DNA of 50,970 bases from a virus (lineage: Duplodnaviria; Caudoviricetes): IMG/VR virus record IMGVR_UViG_3300032212_000014, positions 1-50,970 of that record. The stretch is one strand, 5' to 3'. Within the stretch, counting starts at the first letter, position 1. Each line of letters opens with the position of its first letter. The position numbers were made by a program, and so were the translations under genes. This document shows positions 6,009-40,746 of this stretch, piece after piece. The notes under the pieces are model-generated. The model was not told the origin of the DNA. It did not search any database and saw only the letters and a program-made list of their open reading frames with translations.

Positions 6009-6304
6009 TGGACACCGCCTTTGCGGAGTGTCACAATGTAGTCATCGCCTCGGATGTATTGGATCTTGATCTTGATGCCAAGGCCGCGAGCGATACTGCC
6101 CACCGAGGTTCGCATGTTAAATGCGTACTCGCTCGAAGATCCGCCATCGATCTTGAGATAGTCACACTCGCCGTCAGCAAGTGCGCATAGATGATTCTTC
6201 CAGAACCCGTGCGGATTGCGTCGGCGAAGTGGCGGGCGCATGTCGGGGAGATCCCCGGTGCATCGTTCAACTTTGGTCTCGATCGGCTGAGTGTCCGTGC
6301 TCAT
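6005..6304 (-). CDS. hypothetical protein (possibly small DNA-binding protein)
   Basis: Start MSTDTQ after GGAGATCACG RBS; coupled to the ASCH gene. Confidence 0.6.
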   Translation of the reverse strand: MSTDTQPIETKVERCTGDLPDMRPPLRRRNPHGFWKNHLCALADGECDYLKIDGGSSSEYAFNMRTSVGSIARGLGIKIKIQYIRGDDYIVTLRKGGVQ

Positions 6305-7625
6305 CGTGATCTCCGAGCACGGTTTCGAGCAAGGCGACAAGGCGGCCTTGCTGAAAGAGTGCTTCTTTCAGGAGATCGATTGAATCAGACGATTTAGGTT
6401 TCGGTTTCGGGTCCGAGCTTCCCCCCCGGAGGGGGGCCTCTTTTGCTCTGAACCCTAATAATGACCCCAGCGGGATTTGAACCCGCGTTGTCTGATTGTT
6501 CGATCTCGGCGGCGCTGAACCCCCAAGGCCGATAGTTAGCGGGGTTGCAAACGCCGGGAATCTAAATGCTCCATCGGCACCATCATCATCTCCGCCTTCA
6601 TGTTGCTTGTCAAGTTGGGTACGCACTTGCTTGCGTGTTTTCGGCCCCAGATTGGCGAGGTCGCGAGTGCTGTTAACATCGCAACTCAAGTAGTGATCGA
6701 ACATTACCTTCGGGTCTGCGTGCCGTGAAAAAAAGTGTAATCTTTTTGCTTGATCCACAGTTGCGACATCATACCGAGTCTGGATTGCACACTTTCGGAA
6801 CCGATGCCAACAGCCTCGCACCACTTCACTGGTCTCGATCCCGCACGCTGCCATATCGAGCTTGAGCGTGTTGTGATCCGGCCACTTCTCAAAGAGCATA
6901 CAACCGGTTGAAAACTTCTTCCACTCGATAAGGATTTCAACAATCTCGTCACTCAGCGCCACACGATCACCACGGCGAGCCTTGTCGTCCGTCACGACCA
7001 TACAACGCTTTTCGAGGTCGATGTCCGACCACTCTTGCCGTCGCGATTCAGTCCGCCTCATGCCCGTGTGATACAAGAACTGATACACCGTCGAACGCAG
7101 GGGACCATTCGCCCTGGCCTGCCATCGTGTTTTCTCACAATGCTTGGCGTACTCAACCAGCTTCTCATATTGTTCGTAGGTGAAAGGGGCAAGCGGCTTG
7201 CCTCTGGGCGCTCGCGGTGTCTTGATGCCCACAAATGGGTTCACTGGCAACAACTGGCTCTTGACCAAGAACTTCGCGAAGTCACGAATCGAGCTCAGTT
7301 TGTTCTTCGCCGTCTTGACCTGCCCATTGCTACACATTTCACCAAGCCAATCCATCAGCGGTAACACCTGCATGTCCTGTGGACACGCGATATTGCACAC
7401 GGCAATGTATTCGCGGACATGACGCTCCTTTGATTTCACAGTGCTCGGCCTCTGTTGAAGCCAGTTGATGCGATTGGACGCCCAGGATTCTATCAGTACT
7501 TCCATGCCGGACCCTTTGCAATCGTCCGCCCCAATAAGTTGTATCGATCCATTCCGACTAGGATCGTGATACGGTGATGTTATCCGGGTTTTTAACCCAC
7601 TGTCAACAAAAACTTTACGATACAT
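6267..7625 (-). CDS. int: tyrosine integrase (start may be 7505)
   Basis: HTGMRRTE (R), WHRFRK (HxxR) and SRHAD...HY catalytic residues; GCAAAGG RBS before the Met at 7505. Confidence 0.92.
   Translation of the reverse strand: MYRKVFVDSGLKTRITSPYHDPSRNGSIQLIGADDCKGSGMEVLIESWASNRINWLQQRPSTVKSKERHVREYIAVCNIACPQDMQVLPLMDWLGEMCSNGQVKTAKNKLSSIRDFAKFLVKSQLLPVNPFVGIKTPRAPRGKPLAPFTYEQYEKLVEYAKHCEKTRWQARANGPLRSTVYQFLYHTGMRRTESRRQEWSDIDLEKRCMVVTDDKARRGDRVALSDEIVEILIEWKKFSTGCMLFEKWPDHNTLKLDMAACGIETSEVVRGCWHRFRKCAIQTRYDVATVDQAKRLHFFSRHADPKVMFDHYLSCDVNSTRDLANLGPKTRKQVRTQLDKQHEGGDDDGADGAFRFPAFATPLTIGLGGSAPPRSNNQTTRVQIPLGSLLGFRAKEAPLRGGSSDPKPKPKSSDSIDLLKEALFQQGRLVALLETVLGDHDEHGHSADRDQS
6409..6455 (-). other. 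GC-rich interrupted hairpin immediately downstream of the attP core
   Basis: GGGTTC-AGAGC...CCCCCC TCC GGGGGG...GCTC-GGACCC on the minus strand; no U-tract. Confidence 0.5.
6462..6497 (-). other. putative attP core: 3' fragment of a host tRNA (Glu/Asp-like)
   Basis: Minus strand AATCAGA-CAAC-GCGGG TTCAAAT CCCGC-TGGGGTC-A gives a T-arm plus acceptor 3' strand with no matching 5' half; it lies within int. Confidence 0.75.
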
Positions 7626-7871
7626 AAACTCCCCTAAATACGATCAGGCATTAAAGGGGGGAACTTATACGATTTTATACTTTTGGGATATTCACAAAAC
7701 AGCCATAATCCTAAATAGCAGGAATTAAGGCCGGAATGTTAATCTGGGGTACTCTGATGAGAAGCGTTATAGGGCTTAAACCTGATCCGCCTGTCGATTC
7801 CGTCGCGTATAACCGCGATAGGCCAGGTAGAAAACAGGCCCATATTCTGAATACGGAACAACCCACACGAA

Positions 7872-7945
7872 CCCATAGCGATAACAGGCGAGAGAATACA
7901 CCCGTTTCAATCGCCTTGGGCGCTGATTCCTGTTTCGCTTATGGG
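7872..7945 (-). ncRNA. predicted three-way-junction structured element downstream of the tRNA cluster
   Basis: CCCATA/TATGGG, GCGA/TCGC and AACAGG/CCTGTT helices enclose two small hairpins. Confidence 0.45.
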
Positions 7946-7960
7946 AAGTGTTCATCGTAA

Positions 7961-8034
7961 TAACGAGAGCGGGATTTGAACCCGCGACTACCGGCTTATG
8001 AGGCTAGCGTTCTACCAGACTGAACTATCTCGCA
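7961..8034 (-). tRNA. tRNA with CAT anticodon (Met/fMet/Ile2 unresolved), no encoded CCA
   Basis: TGCGAGA TA GTTC AGTCTGGTA GAAC G CTAGC CT-CAT-AA GCCGG TAGTC GCGGG TTCAAAT CCCGC TCTCGTT A. Confidence 0.88.
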
Positions 8035-8035
8035 A

Positions 8036-8107
8036 TGGGACGGGCAGGACTCGAACCTACGCATACGGGCACATCGTCCCGCACTCTGCCAACTGAGTTA
8101 CCGTCCC
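8036..8107 (-). tRNA. tRNA-like gene with non-canonical anticodon loop (isotype undetermined)
   Basis: Perfect acceptor GGGACGG/CCGTCCC, D-arm ACTC/GAGT and T-arm GTAGG TTCGAGT CCTGC; anticodon arm GCGGG-ACGATGTG-CCCGT. Confidence 0.75.
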
Positions 8108-8215
8108 AAACGACTCTGCGTCCTGCCAACTAGACGAATGGCCTGCCGCTCGCCGATCAAAGCGATTGGCACCTAGGAAAGCCATACAGGACTCGAACCT
8201 GTGTTTCAGAGTTAA
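8108..8215 (-). ncRNA. circularly permuted tRNA-like gene (3' half 8215-8178, 33-nt linker, 5' half 8144-8108)
   Basis: TTAA CTCTG AAAC ACAGG TTCGAGT CCTGT ATGGCTT T - linker - AGGCCAT TC GTCT AGTTGGC AGGAC G CAGAG TCGTTT; the halves pair in both the acceptor and anticodon stems. Confidence 0.8.
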
Positions 8216-8288
8216 TGTTCCATTCGGGGCTTGAACCCGAGTCGCCGGGATGAAAGCCCGGTGTTCTGGCCAACTAAACTAATGGAAC
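8216..8288 (-). tRNA. tRNA-Glu(TTC), no encoded CCA
   Basis: GTTCCAT TA GTTT AGTTGGCCA GAAC A CCGGG CT-TTC-AT CCCGG CGAC TCGGG TTCAAGC CCCGA ATGGAAC A. Confidence 0.93.
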
Positions 8289-8431
8289 ATCTCCGTCTTA
8301 CTTGGGACTCTTACCCCGCCATTGAGCCCCCGTAGACGGCAAGGGGCAGGCGCTTTCCTCAACGCATCGCAGTACTACGAATACGATCAGTGTAAATCAA
8401 CAATCCATCGAAACAGGCTCATCGCGATCTC

Positions 8432-8656
8432 CTAAGCATGGGAGGGGACTGGATCGAAACGCATACGACGCAACACCAAAACAACAGATTCAGGTGTCAC
8501 AGGACGCCGATAGCGAGATGAAAAACTAAAGTTCTTAAAATTATCAATGTCATCAATGGTCAAAGAACCACACTTGCCCGAACGAGGCCAGCGACCAGAC
8601 GCAAGCAAGCCAACGCGGTAAGAACCAGATGAAATGACAGGGGTGAGCGAATCCAT
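8432..8656 (-). CDS. hypothetical protein (74 aa)
   Basis: Start MDSLTP after GCAAAGGAGATCGC RBS. Confidence 0.5.
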   Translation of the reverse strand: MDSLTPVISSGSYRVGLLASGRWPRSGKCGSLTIDDIDNFKNFSFSSRYRRPVTPESVVLVLRRMRFDPVPSHA

Positions 8657-8744
8657 GCGATCTCCTTTGCATGAGTTGTTGAAATCCGCGAGGGAAGCCG
8701 TCGCCTCCGAGCCACATGAGGGCTTGCACATCACGCGGTCGTGT

Positions 8745-9047
8745 TCAAAGTGAACCGGAAATCGATTCCAGGTTCGTGATATGAGAAAACAAAGTCGTCA
8801 GATCAGATTCAACGAATCCAAGCAAGCTGCTATCCCCTTGCTTGTCTGATTGCACAGGCGATGGAGGCATATGGCCTGAGCCCGAGATCGAAACGATCTT
8901 CTCGCTGAGCGACAACGAGAGCTTGGATACCCGCTCATTGACATCAGCAAGGTTTCGAGCAATGTTACCAATACGCTCAGCTGTAGAGGCTGGTGTTGCT
9001 GATCCAGATATTGCTGACATTTCAGCTTGGATGGAGGCGGTGTTCAT
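8745..9047 (-). CDS. hypothetical helical/coiled-coil protein
   Basis: Start MNTASIQ after GAGGA RBS; heptad-like Ile/Leu pattern. Confidence 0.6.
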   Translation of the reverse strand: MNTASIQAEMSAISGSATPASTAERIGNIARNLADVNERVSKLSLSLSEKIVSISGSGHMPPSPVQSDKQGDSSLLGFVESDLTTLFSHITNLESISGSL

Positions 9048-9091
9048 ATCGTTTCCTCTCGATTGTGGTTGTAAACGCAGGTCATGTAAAA

Positions 9092-9241
9092 CTCCAACAG
9101 CGAGAATCGAACTCGCGGGGTCGCTATCTCTTTCGAGACACGGGATGACTCCCATCTAGGCACCATGTTCGCAGTGCCGCCCCATCTACCCGAGTTGATC
9201 AAGCTCGGTAATCCGCCGATTGCCAAGACGGTCTATTGGAA
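9092..9241 (-). ncRNA. about 150-nt tRNA-like RNA with expanded multi-hairpin variable domain
   Basis: Acceptor (T)TCCAATA/TGTTGGA(G); D-like arm CCGTC/GGCGG; anticodon-like arm CCGAG-CTTGATCAA-CTCGG; three tetraloop hairpins closed by GGGG/CCCC; T-arm GCGAG TTCGATT CTCGC. Confidence 0.75.
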
Positions 9242-9304
9242 TCCGACTGCTCCCTGAGGACAAACAGTCGGGGGGTGTGCGAATCCATGCGATCTCCATC
9301 ATGG

Positions 9305-9319
9305 AAAGTTAGTGTACAC
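9305..9319 (-). promoter_or_regulatory. GYGWWCRCTAAC motif heading the leftward RNA/integrase unit
   Basis: GTGTACACTAACTTT; related copies at 15978, 21826, 32124 and 38916. Confidence 0.55.
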
Positions 9320-10266: not shown

Positions 10267-11214
10267 ATGAAATATACACGACGATCCAGCAAGCGAGCCT
10301 CGGGCGCTAAGCGCCGGGCGAATAATGCCGCGGCTTTGCGCCGGGCTCGAGAAGGAATGAGCCCCGAGAATGACGCTCGAGTAATCTCGGGCATGATAGC
10401 CGCCGGCTATGATCCATCCGAGATCGACCCGCGCACCAACTGCTTTACTTATCCCGCTTGGCAAGCGCTCGGCCGACAAGTGCTCAAGGGCGAAACAGGC
10501 GTAAAGATCCCCGTAGGCAAACGGCTTGCCTCTATCTTTCATATCTCCCAAACTAGCGCGATTGGCGACTCCCCAAAGCCGGCGAGCATTCGCGAATGGA
10601 GCACCGCGGGCGTGAATCGCAAAATGCAAGCCGTCGCCGAAAACTCGGGATTCGATCCGGGGGATTTAATCTACAATACTGAGGCAACCGGCGGACCCGT
10701 ATCCTTTTCGTTCCCCGGCGCTATCCCCGCTGATCTTAAAGAATCCCTAGAGGGCTTGCCCTTCGATGTTCGCGCAATGTTTCGCCCGGATATGCCCGGA
10801 TCAACCGGCGCTGATACGCTCGCTGAACATGGCGCCGATGGTATGATTGATCTCGCTAAGAATCTAATCCGATCCGGGGCAACTGGTATAGCCGATCATA
10901 TCGAGCGAGTAGGCAACGAAACAGACCCACAAACGCAACTGCTCCAAGTGTTGCAAGCCCTACGCGCCGGCGTTCCGTTTGTGAGCCGCCCGGCGCTAGA
11001 AGTTGTGCAAGCCGATACGCTCAAAGATGGATCGGGTTTCGAGCTTGTGGGCGTTCCCTTCGCAGTCTATACCGCCGACGGTTGCCGGCGTGCATCATCG
11101 GGCGAGCATGATTTCAATCTCGACGGCTTGGACTCAATCCCCGCCGACAAGGGCACGGTTGATATAGACGCCCGCATAGCGCCCGAGTTGGCAACCGCCG
11201 ATATTCCATTCTAA
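10267..11214 (+). CDS. ArdC-like N-terminal ssDNA-binding domain protein
   Basis: CFTYPAWQALGRQVLKGETGVKI...IFHISQT matches the ArdC-N (DUF1738) pattern; ends in DIPF. Confidence 0.75.
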   Translation: MKYTRRSSKRASGAKRRANNAAALRRAREGMSPENDARVISGMIAAGYDPSEIDPRTNCFTYPAWQALGRQVLKGETGVKIPVGKRLASIFHISQTSAIGDSPKPASIREWSTAGVNRKMQAVAENSGFDPGDLIYNTEATGGPVSFSFPGAIPADLKESLEGLPFDVRAMFRPDMPGSTGADTLAEHGADGMIDLAKNLIRSGATGIADHIERVGNETDPQTQLLQVLQALRAGVPFVSRPALEVVQADTLKDGSGFELVGVPFAVYTADGCRRASSGEHDFNLDGLDSIPADKGTVDIDARIAPELATADIPF

Positions 11215-11223
11215 TCCAATCCC

Positions 11224-11304
11224 CGCCGGGTCCGCTGAAAAGCGGGCGCGTCGATTTGAGAGCCGGTGTCGGATCGGCTCTTATTCATGATCTTAAAGCA
11301 AAGG
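11224..11304 (+). repeat. structured intergenic leader, copy B (GAAA hairpin + GTCGGA hairpin + GCAAAGG RBS)
   Basis: GTCCGCT GAAA AGCGGGC; TGAGAGCCG GTGTCGGAT CGGCTCTTA. Confidence 0.8.
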
Positions 11305-11311
11305 GAAAAGC

Positions 11312-11752
11312 ATGAAACCCAACGAACTAGCGGCGCTATTAAACATGATACTCAACGAATCAGACGACGATACCATTATTGACCTCATCGTCAACAACGC
11401 GGAAGAACTTGAGGAGCTTGCCATAGCTCTTGCTGCTGTCCCCAAGATCGGCGACGGTAAACCGGACGCGCCAACCCATACGCCGGGGCCGTGGCATATC
11501 GGTGATACGAATAAAAACCATCCCGCTATCGTCTATGCCTCTGACGGGTGGGTGATTGCAAACACTTCGGGCGTGATATGCCGAACAGACGACGAGGAAA
11601 GCGCAAACGCTCGCCTGATTGCCGCGGCTCCTGGAATGCTCGAAGCTCTCGAAACCGTTGCAGCCTGCAAGCCTGATCACTCGGGCGGCGTGACCCTCGG
11701 GCATGTTGAGCTGTCAATGATTGCCGATACGCTTCTCAATGCTCGATCTTGA
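11312..11752 (+). CDS. conserved phage hypothetical protein
   Basis: HTPGPW...ANARLIAAAPGMLEAL motif common in phage early genes. Confidence 0.8.
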   Translation: MKPNELAALLNMILNESDDDTIIDLIVNNAEELEELAIALAAVPKIGDGKPDAPTHTPGPWHIGDTNKNHPAIVYASDGWVIANTSGVICRTDDEESANARLIAAAPGMLEALETVAACKPDHSGGVTLGHVELSMIADTLLNARS

Positions 11753-11757
11753 CACGC

Positions 11758-11839
11758 TCGCCGGCCCCGTGGAAACGCGGGGCGGTGGTTTTGGGCACGG
11801 TGTCGGATCGTGCCCGGTTTCCAGATTTCAATGCAAAGG
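11758..11839 (+). repeat. structured intergenic leader, copy C
   Basis: GCCCCGTG GAAA CGCGGGGC; GGGCACG GTGTCGGAT CGTGCCC; GCAAAGG. Confidence 0.85.
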
Positions 11840-11847
11840 ATTTTACA

Positions 11848-12324
11848 ATGTCTGTTTCAATACTCGAGCCGCGCGATATTCAATATCTCTGTGAGATGGC
11901 AGCGATAAAACCAGATTTTAGTTGGTGCCGCGTTGCCGATGGCCATGCGATCGACCGGATTATGCGCCGAGACCTTGCCGGTGCTCTGATTGTGCAGCTC
12001 AGCGCCCTCGGGCAGATTCTTGTCGATGATAACTATGCAAGCTATAACGCCCGATACGACGACAACCTAAAGCCGTTCCGATATGTTCACCACTCCCAAG
12101 CCGTAGACCATAAGCCCGGCGAAGTGTTCGCCGCGTGCAACTACTACGAATACCAAGCGAGCGAGCACCCCGAGGGTATGAACTGTGAAGGGCTCCAGGT
12201 GATCGGCGCGATAAGGGCTCAATCCATGCGGCATGTTATCGCGTCACAATCAAAGAACCCAACAGGGACGCCGGACCACTTCGGAAACTCAACCGCGGTC
12301 TGCCTCTCTCGCCTGATTGGATAA
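11848..12324 (+). CDS. conserved hypothetical protein
   Basis: Start MSVSILE after GCAAAGG; LVDDNYASYNARY...CNYYEYQASEHP. Confidence 0.7.
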   Translation: MSVSILEPRDIQYLCEMAAIKPDFSWCRVADGHAIDRIMRRDLAGALIVQLSALGQILVDDNYASYNARYDDNLKPFRYVHHSQAVDHKPGEVFAACNYYEYQASEHPEGMNCEGLQVIGAIRAQSMRHVIASQSKNPTGTPDHFGNSTAVCLSRLIG

Positions 12325-12332
12325 AAAACTTT

Positions 12333-12414
12333 TCGCCGGCCCCGTGGAAACGCGGGGCGCGGCGATTCGTTGCACGGTGTCGGATCGTGCAACTTTCCGA
12401 ACCCCCAGCAAAGG
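12333..12414 (+). repeat. structured intergenic leader, copy D
   Basis: 27-bp and 19-bp exact matches to copy C; GTTGCACG GTGTCGGAT CGTGCAAC. Confidence 0.85.
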
Positions 12415-12425
12415 GATAGTAAACA

Positions 12426-13694
12426 ATGACACATGAAAACGAAGCGACTTATTGCCCGGAAGATAACAAAATCCGCCTGTACTGCGGACGCGTACCGCGT
12501 GAGGAATACCTAGAGCTCCGGGCGCTCGGGTTCAAATCGACGCCGAAACAGGATTGTGATTTTGTCGCAACTTGGGGCATCGCCCGAGAAGATCGGGCGC
12601 TCTCCATGCTTGCCGAGGGCGACACTATCGGCGACGAGGACCAAAGCCCCGCGGATCGTGCAGCCGATCGCGCTGAACGATTCGCCATGTATCGAGACAA
12701 GCGGCGAATCGAAGCCGGCGGACACGCGGACGCATTCGACGCTGGGCCAAGCTCGCACGGCTACCAATCACAAGACAGAGCCAACCGCGCAGCCGCCAAG
12801 CATGACCGCCATCGCGGGCGAGCCCTGAGCCAATGGGACAAGGCCGAGTATTGGCAACAAAGAACCGCCGGCGTGATTGAACACGCGATATACCAGACGA
12901 GTGCATCGGTTCGCCGTGGGCGGATTGTTCGCCTGGAGTCGGATCTGAGAACGCACACGGGCGACTGCTACACCCGGTACCGTGCTCATCTTGAAAACCG
13001 CCTAGCCTATGAGCGTCAGATGTTGGCGAGTCAGGGCGGATCAGCTGCCGATGTCGATATTATCCCCGGCGGATACTTTGGGCGTCATCAAGTGATCAAG
13101 GTGAATCGCTCGCCGGTGACTAAGCAGCCCGTATCGGTGAAAGTCTGGGGAGCGCACGACTGGAAGCGCGACGCCAACGGGGAGCCCTTGCAATGCCTGA
13201 AATCTGTGAATATCCAGCGGCTCGGAGAGGATGCTTATACACCACCAACCGAGGCCGATCTTGTGAAGCTCGCCGAGTTCAACGCGGCGCTCAAAGAAAA
13301 GACTAAAGAGAAGAACGCGGGCAAGCCCAAGCTCATCAACCCAACCGACGCCGACGCGCAACGGTTGCAAGATACTTTAAACGCAGCCGCTAGAGGGGGA
13401 TCTTCTGAGATCCTAAAAATGACTCAAGCCCAGTATTCTGCACGCTCGAAGGGTTCGTATTCAAGTTATGGCGCCGAGTTCTTGCACGCCGACGGTTCAA
13501 CTGATTCAAGTCCGCGGGCGGGCCGATGGATCGACGGGCAGATGGTCCAGCATACCAACATCTGCAAAGTGCGAATCGGTCCGAATATTGGCAGCAGTTC
13601 ATTCTATTCTGCTGACTCCGTGATCATCATCACCGACAAGCCACAAAAGCCGCTCCCGGCTTGGTCAACCGTTGCCGAGGGGGTGGCATCATGA
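12426..13694 (+). CDS. DUF3560-like protein
   Basis: RAADRAERF...WDKAEYWQQRTAG...VRRGRIVRLESDLR pattern; adjacent to an MTase, as is typical for this family. Confidence 0.7.
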   Translation: MTHENEATYCPEDNKIRLYCGRVPREEYLELRALGFKSTPKQDCDFVATWGIAREDRALSMLAEGDTIGDEDQSPADRAADRAERFAMYRDKRRIEAGGHADAFDAGPSSHGYQSQDRANRAAAKHDRHRGRALSQWDKAEYWQQRTAGVIEHAIYQTSASVRRGRIVRLESDLRTHTGDCYTRYRAHLENRLAYERQMLASQGGSAADVDIIPGGYFGRHQVIKVNRSPVTKQPVSVKVWGAHDWKRDANGEPLQCLKSVNIQRLGEDAYTPPTEADLVKLAEFNAALKEKTKEKNAGKPKLINPTDADAQRLQDTLNAAARGGSSEILKMTQAQYSARSKGSYSSYGAEFLHADGSTDSSPRAGRWIDGQMVQHTNICKVRIGPNIGSSSFYSADSVIIITDKPQKPLPAWSTVAEGVAS

Positions 13695-14320
13695 ATCGCG
13701 GCCTATTACGATTGCTCCATCTACGCGAACAAACCGAAGCCGTAGACGCGGACATGATCGGCGAGCGGGCACGCTTTAAGCGGCTACGCAAGGCCGAAGC
13801 GCCCCGCGCGGTGTCGGCGTTCAATCTGTTTCAAACCCCGCCGGAGCTCGCTGATTGTATGGTTGCGAATCTCCCAACCCTGGGCGACGGTTCGCGGGTG
13901 CTTGAACCTTCCGCCGGGCTCGGTCGATTGTTTCACGCGATCCGTCGAAAAGCGCCCGGCGCTCTGGTCACGCTTGTTGAATCCTCGCCCGATTGCTGCG
14001 CCGAGTTGTACCGTGCGATAGATGGCGACGAATCCGCGCACCTTGCCCAGCGTGATTTCTTGAACTTCTCGGATCTCGACGGGTTCGATTTCATCGTGAT
14101 GAATCCGCCATTCAAGCGGGGGGCGGATGTGAAGCATATCAAGCACGCACGCGGATTGCTCAAGCCTGGCGGGGTGCTTGTGGCGTTGTGCTATGACGGT
14201 AGCGCCCAGAATAAGCACCTCAAACCAATCGCGGACACTTGGACGCCGCTGGGCTCTGATCTATTCAAGACTGAGGGCACGCGGGCGGCCGTGGTGATGA
14301 TGACGCTCTCTACGCGATGA
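13691..14320 (+). CDS. N6-adenine DNA methyltransferase (gamma-type, small)
   Basis: FQTPPELA, VLEPSAGLG, DFL and VMNPPF motifs; ATGA overlap. Confidence 0.9.
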   Translation: MNRGLLRLLHLREQTEAVDADMIGERARFKRLRKAEAPRAVSAFNLFQTPPELADCMVANLPTLGDGSRVLEPSAGLGRLFHAIRRKAPGALVTLVESSPDCCAELYRAIDGDESAHLAQRDFLNFSDLDGFDFIVMNPPFKRGADVKHIKHARGLLKPGGVLVALCYDGSAQNKHLKPIADTWTPLGSDLFKTEGTRAAVVMMTLSTR

Positions 14321-14328
14321 TCCCAAAG

Positions 14329-14455
14329 CCCCGAGATCGTGGAAACGCGATCCGCGGGGATTCGATCAGCTACGGACGGTTGATCAAAAAGTAGGTGAGG
14401 GCGATACGCTCGAAAGCGGTCGGACACGCCCCCACCCTAGCACCCATTGCAAAGG
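14329..14455 (+). repeat. structured intergenic leader, copy E (divergent, three hairpins)
   Basis: GATCGTG GAAA CGCGATC; GATCAGCT ACGGAC GGTTGATC; GGGCG...GTCGGACA CGCCC; GCAAAGG. Confidence 0.75.
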
Positions 14456-14466
14456 GGATAAATCCC

Positions 14467-14754
14467 ATGAGTACCGAACCAATCATAGACGCAATCACTC
14501 AGAGAATCATGGACGACGCGGGGGCATATGAACCAACCCCCCAAGAAGTCCGCTGGGCTTTGATCGAGCACCAATCAAGGAAGCTCGCTGACGCTTTGAC
14601 CCGTCATCAGTTCGTAGGCGTGACCGGCGACGCGCTCATCGCGTTGCGCGATCTTCGCGAAGCTATGGACGGGGCGACCGAGAAGCCCGAGCCAATCGAG
14701 CCGGATAACCCGCTGGCAATCATCGGCAACCGTGGATACACAACGACCTATTGA
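14467..14754 (+). CDS. hypothetical protein
   Basis: Start MSTEPII after GCAAAGGGG RBS. Confidence 0.65.
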   Translation: MSTEPIIDAITQRIMDDAGAYEPTPQEVRWALIEHQSRKLADALTRHQFVGVTGDALIALRDLREAMDGATEKPEPIEPDNPLAIIGNRGYTTTY

Positions 14755-14763
14755 GCGAAACCA

Positions 14764-14815
14764 CCCGGCGGGAGTGAAAGCGCCCGCCGGGCCTTGTATG
14801 ATCTTAAAGCAAAGG
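14764..14815 (+). repeat. structured intergenic leader, copy F
   Basis: CCCGGCGGG...GAAA...CCCGCCGGG followed by ATGATCTTAAAGCAAAGG, identical to 11287-11304. Confidence 0.75.
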
Positions 14816-14823
14816 AGAATAAA

Positions 14824-15210
14824 ATGGGAATGTTTGATACTGTGGCAGTTGAATGCCCTCAATGCGCCGAGTTCGTCGGCGTTCAAAGCAAAGCGATGGG
14901 CCACAGACTCACCAACCTGAATCTGTACAACATTGAGAACGCACCAGACGATATCAAGGCTGACATTGCAGACTGCCAATGCGAGTGCCGAAAGTGCGGG
15001 CAAAAATTCACTGTCCGGGCAGAGATTACTTTAACAGTCATGGCTTGCCACGATTTTCCGCCGGACACTGATTCGTGGATCGTCTGGAGCGAGCCACACC
15101 CATTATGCAAAGATGGCGGGTCGGAATACCCGGATTGGTATCTGGATCATATCCAACAACAGATCGAATCCAAACCTAGTGATCCCCTTATGCCAGGGGG
15201 CGAGCGATGA
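14824..15210 (+). CDS. zinc-ribbon hypothetical protein (MGMFD type)
   Basis: MGMFDTVAVECPQC...QSK...CRKCG. Confidence 0.75.
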   Translation: MGMFDTVAVECPQCAEFVGVQSKAMGHRLTNLNLYNIENAPDDIKADIADCQCECRKCGQKFTVRAEITLTVMACHDFPPDTDSWIVWSEPHPLCKDGGSEYPDWYLDHIQQQIESKPSDPLMPGGER

Positions 15211-15923
15211 GCAAGAAGCAAATCAAGTGTGTTATCTATGCCCGTTTCAGTCCGCGCCCAGCTAAGGCGCTCAAAGACTGTCAATCTATCGCCGTGCAGA
15301 TTGAATCCTGCAAAGCGTTCGCAGAGAAGCAAGGGTATCGCGTGATGAATACCTATGTGGATCAAGAGAAGTCTCGAAACGACTTCGATCGTCCGGGTCT
15401 CCATGAGGGCATCAAATCACTCTATCGCGGCTGGATCTTTCTCGCCTATAGCCCTGATCGAATCGGATCAGGACGGCACGCCGCGGTGATCGAGAACGAT
15501 ATCATCAGCAAGGGTGCCAGGATCGAGTACGCCACCGGCGATATGAACGGACAATCCGACGAGACCACGCTCATGCGGGGGTTCTTTTCGCTGCTCGCTG
15601 AGTATGAACGAGCAAAGATTGGCCGGCGAACCAGTGACGGAATGCAGTTCAGGCAGGCCAACGGGGAGCGAATGACAAGCATCGGAACCTTGCCCTACGG
15701 GAAGATGGTTGACCCTGAGAATGATCGCCGGATGATCGACAATCCAGACGAAATCAGGGTTATTCGAGCGATTAAACGATGGAATAAGCAGGGCGTGACC
15801 GTCGCGGGCATGATCTCAAAGCTCCACGAAAACCAGTGGAAACCGAGAGGCAAGGAATGGCACCGGACCACGATCAATCGGATTTTGGCACGCTCAAAGG
15901 GTGACAAGCCCAAGGATAGTTGA
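15207..15923 (+). CDS. serine recombinase (resolvase catalytic domain plus short recombinase domain)
   Basis: VIYARFS, DRPGL, PDRIG, LAEYERAKIGRRT and LPYG motifs. Confidence 0.9.
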   Translation: MSKKQIKCVIYARFSPRPAKALKDCQSIAVQIESCKAFAEKQGYRVMNTYVDQEKSRNDFDRPGLHEGIKSLYRGWIFLAYSPDRIGSGRHAAVIENDIISKGARIEYATGDMNGQSDETTLMRGFFSLLAEYERAKIGRRTSDGMQFRQANGERMTSIGTLPYGKMVDPENDRRMIDNPDEIRVIRAIKRWNKQGVTVAGMISKLHENQWKPRGKEWHRTTINRILARSKGDKPKDS

Positions 15924-40102: not shown

Positions 40103-40155
40103 AACCCTTCCCCTGATCCAAGCGCATGGACGCGTCTGGGGGGAGGGTTCTTTTT
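40103..40155 (+). terminator. intrinsic terminator
   Basis: AACCCTTCCCCT/GGGGGGAGGGTT stem followed by CTTTTT. Confidence 0.75.
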
Positions 40156-40167
40156 CTAGTCACACCC

Positions 40168-40746
40168 ATGATTTCCAATGCGATCAAAAACCATGATCAC
40201 TTGAAAGACATCACTGTCTCGGACTTCCTGGATTTCTTCTGGAAGGAATGCGTCACCGGCGCGTCGCTGGTGGACATGGACAACAAATGGGTCTCCCCGA
40301 ACCCCAAGATATGCGGGCTGCTGGGGTATCCAGCCTCTCGGCTCGAAGAGATGACTTGGAGAGATGTGACGATCGAGCCGGATCGCGCAGAGGACATGAT
40401 TGCGGTCAGGGCAGTAATCACCGGCGAGATGTCGCACTATGTGATGGACAAAACATATCAGGCTCGCGGTGGGTCGCTGATCCGTGCTCGCCTGACTGTG
40501 AAGCCGATCCGGGGCGCAAATAGAGATGTGGCGATGCTGCTTAGTCAGGTGCAAGAGATCGACGGGGTGCCGGTCGGAGCAGCCGACGAGTTGCGGGTGG
40601 TGTGGGACTTTGTTGGAAAGCACAAGAAATCGCTCGGCCTGTTAGGGATGACATACACCGTGGGAGTGGCGCTCGCGGGAGACAGCGCACTCGTCTGGTT
40701 CAAGTCGGTGATCGAAGTGGTGACCAGCCTCGGAAGCGGTGGATGA
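40168..40746 (+). CDS. PAS domain protein with C-terminal membrane segment
   Basis: GASLVDMDNKWVSPNPKICGLLGY...TWRDVT.EPD...DKTYQARGGSLIRARLTVKPIR...SQVQEI is a PAS/PAC pattern; hydrophobic tail. Confidence 0.85.
   Translation: MISNAIKNHDHLKDITVSDFLDFFWKECVTGASLVDMDNKWVSPNPKICGLLGYPASRLEEMTWRDVTIEPDRAEDMIAVRAVITGEMSHYVMDKTYQARGGSLIRARLTVKPIRGANRDVAMLLSQVQEIDGVPVGAADELRVVWDFVGKHKKSLGLLGMTYTVGVALAGDSALVWFKSVIEVVTSLGSGG

Follow-up and report, generated by a model that had tools for sequence, protein, structure and literature searches.

The virus record IMGVR_UViG_3300032212_000014 (Duplodnaviria; Caudoviricetes) carries on its minus strand, between positions 7961 and 9240, a cluster of five tRNA-shaped units, and the question raised by this locus is what a phage does with tRNA bodies that probably cannot decode. 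The window analysed here is the whole stretch of 50,970 nucleotides (nt). An earlier note, made from the sequence alone, had read the region as an operon of tRNA mimics, perhaps decoys for anticodon nucleases. We find that one unit is a circularly permuted tRNA body with neither an anticodon nor a Ro-binding module, that it belongs to a class which recurs in phage tRNA arrays, and that this class is under selection. A tentative reading, to which we give slightly less than an even chance, is that two likely decoding tRNAs lie beside three non-decoding units, chief among them the permuted body, which would be released as a free mimic of the tRNA elbow and bind host RNA-processing or decay enzymes.

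The five units stand in the order that the earlier note gave, and all have fully paired T-arms (5/5, minus strand, between 9116 and 7985) and acceptor stems of 6–7 base pairs (bp). Retention of the T-arm throughout is partly an effect of ascertainment, because tRNA-like units are recognised by that arm. ARAGORN and Rfam, the check proposed in the note, call three tRNAs, namely Glu(UUC), a tRNA with an 8-nt anticodon loop and a CAU tRNA, and leave the permuted unit and a 149-nt RNA uncalled; ARAGORN calls of a transfer-messenger RNA (tmRNA) appear only at lowered thresholds amid many junk calls and were rejected. The tRNAs are separated by spacers of 1–6 nt and have no encoded CCA. From this spacing a single transcript is plausible, and a scan upstream of the cluster found no clear promoter. 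The sequence features of the units suggest that Glu(UUC) and the CAU tRNA are likely to decode, and that the permuted, 8-nt-loop and 149-nt units are likely not to. With two of the five units resembling decoding tRNAs, the description of the operon as made only of mimics does not hold. Misassembly was rejected, since the depth of the corresponding Logan contig is even and the cluster is free of variant letters and joints there, in a run that may be the stretch's own source and supplies no independent sample.

An 11-nt motif occurs three times in and beside the cluster (7637-7647, 8380-8390 and 8970-8980, minus strand). Genome-wide it has six matches, all on the minus strand, where 0.84 are expected, and it also precedes a tRNA in another locus (L046); it is possibly a regulatory box.

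A permuted tRNA body and its relatives in other phage arrays

The permuted unit occupies 8108..8215 on the minus strand (core 8114-8211), an assignment that rests on its fold and on evidence from its class. Its 3' half comes first (8211-8179) and comprises the 3' strand of the anticodon stem, a 4-nt variable region, the T-arm and the 3' strand of the acceptor stem; after a 34-nt hairpin linker, the 5' half (8144-8114) supplies the 5' strand of the acceptor stem, the D-arm and the 5' strand of the anticodon stem. The unit is open at the anticodon loop, where its ends leave 4–6 unpaired nt. This permuted cloverleaf is the unconstrained minimum free energy structure, with 7/7 acceptor pairs and 5/5 anticodon-stem pairs at mean pair probabilities of 0.86 and 0.99 respectively, and it contains U8, A14, G18G19, U54U55C56, A58 and the Levitt pair G15-C48. 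The permuted tRNA of the earlier note is hence borne out, as are its canonical tRNA-Glu, its RNA of about 150 nt and its three-way junction, by folds, ARAGORN or Rfam. The unit is wedged into the array, with 5 nt between position 72 of tRNA-Glu and its start and 6 nt between its end and the following tRNA. The closest member of its class shares 66% identity with it over the core, and a family-specific pattern search returned 0 matches. When the halves are rejoined in silico, ARAGORN calls the resulting cloverleaf tRNA-Asn(GUU) on a body that is Gln/Glu-like, a call that is not used as evidence because the loop carries C33.

Units of this kind recur in phage tRNA arrays. Three architecture patterns run over IMG/VR gave 47, at least 120 (of an estimated ~130) and 80 loci, 247 together, with some contigs repeated. 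A detector requiring at least 6/7 acceptor pairs, at least 4/5 anticodon-stem pairs and the absence of a canonical partner half picked out 66 of 248 sequences, the phage stretch among them, which together hold 54 distinct permuted units. Twenty of the 54 start more than 12 nt from the preceding tRNA and were set aside, some of them resembling tandem duplicates or intron-bearing genes; the remaining tightly wedged set has 34 units, the phage's own included, in 30 families at 80% identity. In controls on 168 sequences the detector accepted 32 of 143 orphan half pairs that lie side by side; for canonical neighbours the figure was 5 of 112, and for swapped partners 124 of 20,286. It also passed 10 of 109 GTDB loci, some as tandem duplicates. 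Y32, U33 and R37 are kept together in only 4/34 units and NCCA is encoded in 0/34, while GNRA or UUCG loops occur in 13 of 45 short linkers, a raw count that has no chance baseline.

The two permuted halves evolve together. When 24 of the 54 units are aligned, pairing holds in 96.6% of cells and two-sided changes are seen at 20 of 21 pairs, a covariation that is partly by construction because good pairing was the ground for choosing the rows. Two tests escape this bias. The first is the Levitt pair 15:48, for which 28 of 34 units show covariation between the halves (Fisher p 5.5e-4). The second is a set of orthologs following tRNA-Asn in the cluster M mycobacteriophages MrMagoo (L384:6088-6159), Aziz (L062), Reindeer (L385:388-457) and Rey (L386:355-428), the last two found by BLAST alone; here 97.6% of cells are paired and there are eight two-sided pair changes, in the acceptor and anticodon stems among others, as against 0 of 500 shuffles. 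A second four-member family shows 98.8% pairing and four two-sided changes, a count that 20 of 500 shuffles reach. Such compensatory conservation among orthologs means that the permuted class is not random decay.

A gene class that recurs within phage tRNA arrays escapes both ARAGORN and Rfam, and the unit is unannotated in the three mycobacteriophage records that were opened (MrMagoo, Reindeer and Rey); one such unannotated unit behind tRNA-Asn lies at about 57862-57933 of NC_053515.1. Literature searches, whose scope excluded supplements, the cluster M genome paper, the 2018 Y RNA review and the review describing b7a-tRNA, found no report of permuted tRNA units without Ro in phage arrays. 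GOLLD RNA, tmRNA and RtcB lie near the unit in MrMagoo; permuted units adjoin phage-encoded RNase P RNA (L015:1171-1552) and ROOL RNA (L110:1812-2386) elsewhere; and some arrays hold two or more units (L028, L074:1418-1562, L140:220-360), back to back in the latter two.

The companion tRNA-shaped units

The unit upstream of the permuted body is a canonical tRNA-Glu(UUC) at 8216..8288 on the minus strand (ARAGORN; Rfam 65.7 bits), which lacks an encoded CCA and has a normal cloverleaf with a 7-nt loop, U33, a purine at 37 and an anticodon arm near-identical to that of tRNA-Glu from Phycisphaerae, the likely host group. Downstream, at 8036..8107 on the same strand, lies the tRNA body whose anticodon loop the earlier note rightly called malformed, having 8 nt and no U33; Rfam detects it and ARAGORN reports it as 'tRNA-???'. 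It is closest to Phycisphaerae tRNA-Lys(UUU) and shares 24 of its first 25 nucleotides with that gene, a best BLAST hit and not an ortholog; differences fall at 14 of 22 anticodon and variable-region columns and at 6 of 53 elsewhere. Its changed stem pairs remain paired, and from this comparison it is likely to be a tRNA-Lys(UUU) derivative with a replaced loop.

The last unit of the cluster is a tRNA-CAU at 7961..8034 (minus strand), called by ARAGORN and Rfam, which the alignments with Phycisphaerae tRNAs identify as derived from an initiator tRNA. Initiator tRNA-fMet is marked by a mismatch at 1:72, an A11-U24 pair and an anticodon stem with three G-C pairs. The phage gene keeps the first of these alone: 11-24 is now U-A, and the three G-C pairs are lost. 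Compared with the Phycisphaerae initiator, five pairs are changed on both sides, three are changed on one side and still paired, and one is broken (A29-C41). The gene does have mismatches, as the earlier note said, and they lie at 1:72 and at A29-C41; the loop is a normal 7-nt one, and U1-U72 is host-like, occurring also in a Phycisphaerae initiator tRNA (L398). The tRNA is likely to decode.

At the other end of the cluster, the 149-nt RNA (9092..9240, minus strand) is predicted to fold with a 7-bp acceptor stem, G73, a D-like arm, an arm with a 9-nt loop, a four-way junction in place of the variable region and a canonical T-arm, at a z-score of −2.53 that 6 of 200 shuffles equal. It has no Rfam hit, and homolog searches found none; patterns for it matched two viral and five metagenome sequences, which on inspection were judged to be chance. 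Its closest described analogue is species 1 RNA of T4 (rnaC), likewise a stable RNA (~140 nt) in a phage tRNA cluster, for which annotation and folding place a 3' T-arm beside long helices in the position of the decoding arm. The two differ in their folds, as rnaC has two long helices and the 149-nt RNA combines a four-way junction with a D-like arm and an arm that bears the 9-nt loop; no T4 sequence was among the matches listed for the phage stretch (30 of 49 records). According to the available text of PMC9697503, rnaC is expressed late. Arrays with permuted units also hold tRNA bodies in which large hairpin domains replace the anticodon or variable region (L023, L050, L064, L069, L081, L117, L126, L210, L253, L290). 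These may be architectural analogues of the 149-nt RNA, none being a sequence homolog, although the scan that found them has no chance baseline. In three arrays (L117:1001-1743, L290:2897-3510 and L069) they form runs with domains of 40–80 nt. The 9-nt loop of the 149-nt RNA (region 9199-9207) and the linker loop of the permuted unit (8145-8178) share the same palindromic core of 4–6 nt, from which a kissing-loop contact between the two is conceivable.

Possible roles and rival explanations

By analogy, the permuted unit may be likened to the effector domain of YrlA (RF02553), yet it is not a YrlA. YrlA is a tRNA-like Y RNA of bacteria and phages that binds Ro60 and PNPase, carries psi55 and D, and has a Ro60 (TROVE) gene on the same strand within about 4 kb. 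As described in the available text of PMC4201824 and 10.1101/312249, YrlA has its T-arm 5' of the D-arm, an acceptor stem that a loop or linker closes, and ends at the position of the anticodon stem. The phage unit shows this topology, with T-arm, acceptor stem and D-arm in that order and the acceptor stem closed, and the tRNA tertiary nucleotides and the Levitt covariation are further likenesses in the permuted units. The differences concern the partner, the size and the setting. A Ro60 gene is absent from the phage and from 28 of 30 carrier records, and the units measure ~70–110 nt and are wedged directly between tRNAs. The search for a TROVE/Ro60 gene in the phage record gave 0 matches, with positive controls found in 2 of 14 genomes. 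Of the 30 carrier records, many of which are partial, 2 have TROVE and 6 have RtcB, and the phage stretch has no RtcB. The Ro motif GNCGAAN0-1G is absent between 7700 and 9400, and no Ro-binding stem is possible because only 5 nt separate tRNA-Glu from the permuted unit.

The same test found the motif in 2 of 34 wedged units as against 5 of 7 host YrlA loci, where YrlAs beside TROVE also have a long closing stem. The Rfam YrlA model (threshold 69 bits) gave only a 24.3-bit partial match at 8009-8061, across two other tRNAs, and none of 20 loci taken from these arrays reached its gathering score. Kinship with host YrlAs is visible in a model built from phage units only (R1), which among 151 Phycisphaerales genomes matches beside the TROVE gene in 10 of the 10 that are TROVE-positive, several of these matches being labelled YrlA by Rfam. 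Loci L372-L382 of these genomes (G196, G306, G346, G367, G391, G401, G409) have two or three YrlA RNAs beside rsr, several of them below the Rfam gathering score.

Released from its transcript, the permuted body would have an intact elbow and no decoding arm. Host 3'-end processing after tRNA-Glu together with an RNase P cut before the next tRNA would free an RNA of ~108 nt (8215-8108) with D and T arms in contact, a hairpin-capped acceptor stem and no anticodon loop. RNase P might further open the linker and CCA might be added, yielding a two-piece RNA shaped like a tRNA cut at its anticodon; this would be possible because the acceptor stem is a full 7 bp, as in the YrlA of Mycobacterium smegmatis. 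The target is speculative, and would most plausibly be a host factor that reads the elbow, such as PNPase or an enzyme of tRNA surveillance or defence, tied up during infection or lysogeny. An elbow-reading factor of RNA processing or decay is favoured by analogy, because of what has been predicted for YrlA and because phage Yrl RNAs bind PNPase (available text of PMC12135203). The ex-Lys tRNA and the 149-nt RNA may be independent versions of the same design, for which the evidence is weaker. A broader proposal appears doubtful: that phages widely encode anticodon-less tRNA bodies, by permutation, loop replacement or expansion of the variable arm, as a protein-free means of counter-defence or host control, in which RNase P, along with the CCA-adding enzyme, would make a 'cut tRNA' that jams or misleads sensors of tRNA damage, decay enzymes or defence effectors, with three such designs in one transcript here. 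Irregular arrays of partly non-translating tRNAs in mobile DNA have been described, as polycistrons of irregular tRNAs and allo-tRNAs (PMC5389517) and as tRNA 'introns' in Lak phages (10.1101/356790); in the available text of these sources the genes differ in having 8/4 or 9/3 acceptor branches or insertions, and the term 'permut' is absent from that of PMC5389517.

Several observations weigh against the elbow-mimic reading, in addition to the built-in part of the 24-row covariation. Only 22 of the 34 units fold both permuted helices at a probability above 0.5, and the 34-nt linker of the phage unit is atypical of a class in which 24 of 34 linkers have at most 8 nt. Model R1 is not specific, because it also scores ordinary tandem tRNAs at 48–52 bits (L374, L376, L378, L381, L383). 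The 149-nt RNA has a D-like arm that lacks U8 and A14, and it overlaps a small open reading frame (ORF); the 8-nt loop of the ex-Lys tRNA could stem from one loop-replacement event. Furthermore, no homolog of the whole locus was found in the collections searched, so that selection is shown for the permuted class and not for the phage's own copy, and nothing indicates joint retention of the three mimics at this locus.

The strongest alternative, in our view unlikely but to be taken seriously, is that the tRNA-shaped units are punctuation acting in cis, signals for cutting and folding by RNase P and 3'-end nucleases that would order the maturation of a polycistronic transcript with its tRNAs and small ORFs and have no role once released. 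The layout fits it: 34 of 54 units are wedged 2–12 nt after the previous tRNA, the tRNAs of the cluster abut without CCA, and the 149-nt RNA comes just before a 100-amino-acid (aa) ORF. Flanking tRNAs, however, bring processing signals of their own, and linkers of 8 nt or less would seal the acceptor end instead of exposing it. Moreover, the anticodon stem, which is not needed for recognition of the elbow, is compensatorily conserved as well.

Somewhat less probable is decay, whereby the odd units would be pseudogenes or recombination debris in a little-used array, produced by tandem duplications that lost their outer halves and by scrambling of loops. The lack of a locus homolog fits such an account, as do the A-C mismatch and the lost initiator G-C pairs of the CAU tRNA and an 8-nt loop that could be a single recent event. 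Odd-loop tRNAs are found at ~1–2% in all sets (2 of 265 beside permuted units, 18 of 758 at other viral loci, 4 of 395 in GTDB and 1 of 72 at Phycisphaerales loci). Decay is hard to reconcile with the compensatory conservation of permuted orthologs and with the Levitt covariation, and the changed pairs of the ex-Lys and CAU tRNAs nearly all remain paired relative to Phycisphaerae tRNAs. The argument against decay in the earlier note consequently stands for the compensated permuted class, and for the ex-Lys tRNA insofar as its changes are concentrated in the anticodon and variable region; it does not extend to the phage's own locus, which is without homologs.

The decoy role that the note proposed is possible but not favoured, and we consider it improbable. 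Under it, uncleavable look-alikes would stall enzymes of the PrrC, RloC, VapC, OLD or AriB type, and the two decoding tRNAs would replace those that had been cut. Some details are suggestive, since the 8-nt-loop unit most resembles tRNA-Lys(UUU), a known target of AriB, and retains D-loop U16, modelled as being read by the second AriB monomer (available text of PMC12409363), and the altered anticodon stem of the CAU tRNA is of the kind that confers resistance to OLD (available text of PMC12445682). The same sources count against decoys, for AriB must also clamp the anticodon loop, which these units lack, and the rescue from P2-OLD by phage tRNAs is explicitly replacement of the cut tRNA and not competitive inhibition. 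The case for decoys is weak, and the mimics lack the arm that anticodon nucleases grip. Phage tRNAs known to resist nucleases (tRNA-Lys of T5 against AriB of PARIS, and tRNA-Thr against P2-OLD) combine changes in the anticodon stem with an intact loop, as the CAU tRNA does, and act by decoding in place of the host tRNA, which the three non-decoding units cannot do. Elsewhere the neighbours of permuted units are ordinary tRNAs, with no enrichment of odd loops among them, and PADLOC on 27 phage proteins returned only methyltransferase models and one weak PDC-S10 match.

Two further accounts are very improbable. In red and green algae and in Thermofilum pendens, permuted tRNA genes likewise have the 3' half first and in some cases are broken at the anticodon loop (available text of PMC3978253), and the phage gene might be re-ligated there to give a tRNA that decodes, as happens in Cyanidioschyzon or Thermofilum, an idea encouraged by the tRNA-Asn(GUU) call and by RtcB in 6 of 30 carrier records. 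The known cases, however, are spliced at bulge-helix-bulge (BHB) motifs by a splicing endonuclease, an enzyme of which the available text of 10.1101/312249 reports none in bacteria, whereas the phage unit has 4–6 unpaired end nt in place of a BHB motif and C33 in a rebuilt loop on a Gln/Glu-type body, the stretch lacks RtcB, and the anticodon loop is not conserved in the class (remnants in only 4 of 34). An ordinary YrlA relying on host Ro60 would explain the shared topology, and 10 of 151 Phycisphaerales genomes do have TROVE with YrlA beside it, but the unit has no Ro motif, stands in a 5-nt gap and goes unmatched by the Rfam YrlA model.

The elbow-mimic reading bears on two open questions: which effector the YrlA tRNA-like domain has, and what purpose stable tRNA-like RNAs in phage tRNA clusters, T4 rnaC for example, serve. 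Where phages without Ro60 maintain a free version of this domain by selection, the domain stands apart from the partner it normally has and its function becomes testable. Cluster M mycobacteriophages, which are in culture with M. smegmatis mc2 155 as host and whose orthologs are unannotated, offer an immediate genetic handle.

Small open reading frames, repeats and the phage genome

Both small ORFs of the earlier note were found, and a third had been missed. The 100-aa ORF (8745..9047, minus strand), just after the 149-nt RNA, has a strong ribosome-binding site; a homolog search recovered only itself, and a feature similarity of 0.91 to unnamed viral clusters is no more than a lead. The 74-aa ORF (8432..8656, minus strand) has no family match and its coding status is uncertain; its longer reading (8432-8734) has no Pfam, PHROG or PADLOC hit. 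The third, a putative 29-aa ORF (9199..9288, minus strand), overlaps the 5' part of the 149-nt RNA, and its stop codon falls in the 9-nt loop of that RNA. A 26-nt repeat provides the ribosome-binding site and start codon of the 29-aa ORF (9272..9297, minus strand) and of the 74-aa ORF (8640..8665, minus strand). The two copies are 96% identical, with two exact 19-nt matches where 0.04 are expected; a partial copy lies near 8424-8440, and the repeated leaders start two small ORFs with similar first residues. A pattern search for the repeat gave two identical matches, with no tRNA nearby. Each copy contains tandem GGA motifs, which might be read as CsrA-like. In antisense RNAs of the C4/CI type, loops are complementary to repeated leader sequences. 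Control of this type was rejected here, as the longest complement to the repeats is 4–6 nt, equalled by 24–100% of shuffles, and there is no Rfam C4 hit.

Two hairpins lie outside the tRNA-shaped units. The pseudoknot predicted in the earlier note found no support in the long hairpin upstream of tRNA-Glu (8291..8352, minus strand): the hairpin at 8290-8375 has a z-score of −0.52, and the loop pairs equally well with 464 of 1000 shuffled versions of the 5' strand. The three-way-junction hairpin (7872..7945, minus strand), by contrast with its shuffled versions, is stable (z −3.97, 0 of 200 shuffles), only 19 of 2036 genome windows being as stable; it has no Rfam family and no homolog was found.

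The genome is that of a circular temperate phage, as judged from its sequence. The stretch has a 127-nt terminal repeat and is matched by one circular 50,873-nt Logan contig of even depth; the completeness estimate of CheckV for the record is 80%. Profile matches to Pfam and PHROG identify a terminase, ERF/RecE recombination genes, methyltransferases and a tyrosine integrase, the last (6267..7625, minus strand) directly downstream of the tRNA cluster. A 30-nt core at 6460..6489 (minus strand), inside the 3' end of the integrase ORF, equals the 3' part of a host tRNA-Glu(CUC) and is the likely phage attachment site (attP), because the Logan contig breaks there and other contigs share the core, their loose ends completing tRNA-Glu(CUC). 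This core corresponds to tRNA-Glu(CUC), whereas the tRNA-Glu that the phage itself carries has UUC. The core is found, with one mismatch, in 3 of 301 genomes of the class of a Phycisphaerales genome, and in the Phycisphaerales genome G404 tRNA-Glu(CUC) agrees with the loose end; because of these two agreements the host is likely to belong to the Phycisphaerae. The first pointer to this group (L327) was rejected as a chance pattern match within a gene. Model R1 gives a weak permuted-style match of 23 bits, without a D-arm, over 6385-6495.

The search for related phages that the note had proposed recovered none. The integrase search found no relatives, terminase alignment confirmed 0 of 56 pattern matches, and terminase homologs of at most 51% identity exist without genomic context. 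Searches with DNA matched tRNAs only; 136 of 401 genomes had a match, and among the matches listed only the three full tRNAs were covered. A search of sequencing runs for the stretch listed one DNA run and no RNA run. Elsewhere in the genome, a divergent block at 10267-15923 (plus strand), with a weak ArdC-N-like protein, DUF3560, a methyltransferase and a serine recombinase, looks more like a plasmid or an integrative and conjugative element (ICE) than a phage, and a PAS-fold protein with weak Pfam matches is encoded at 40126-40746 (plus strand), at the end of the structural region.

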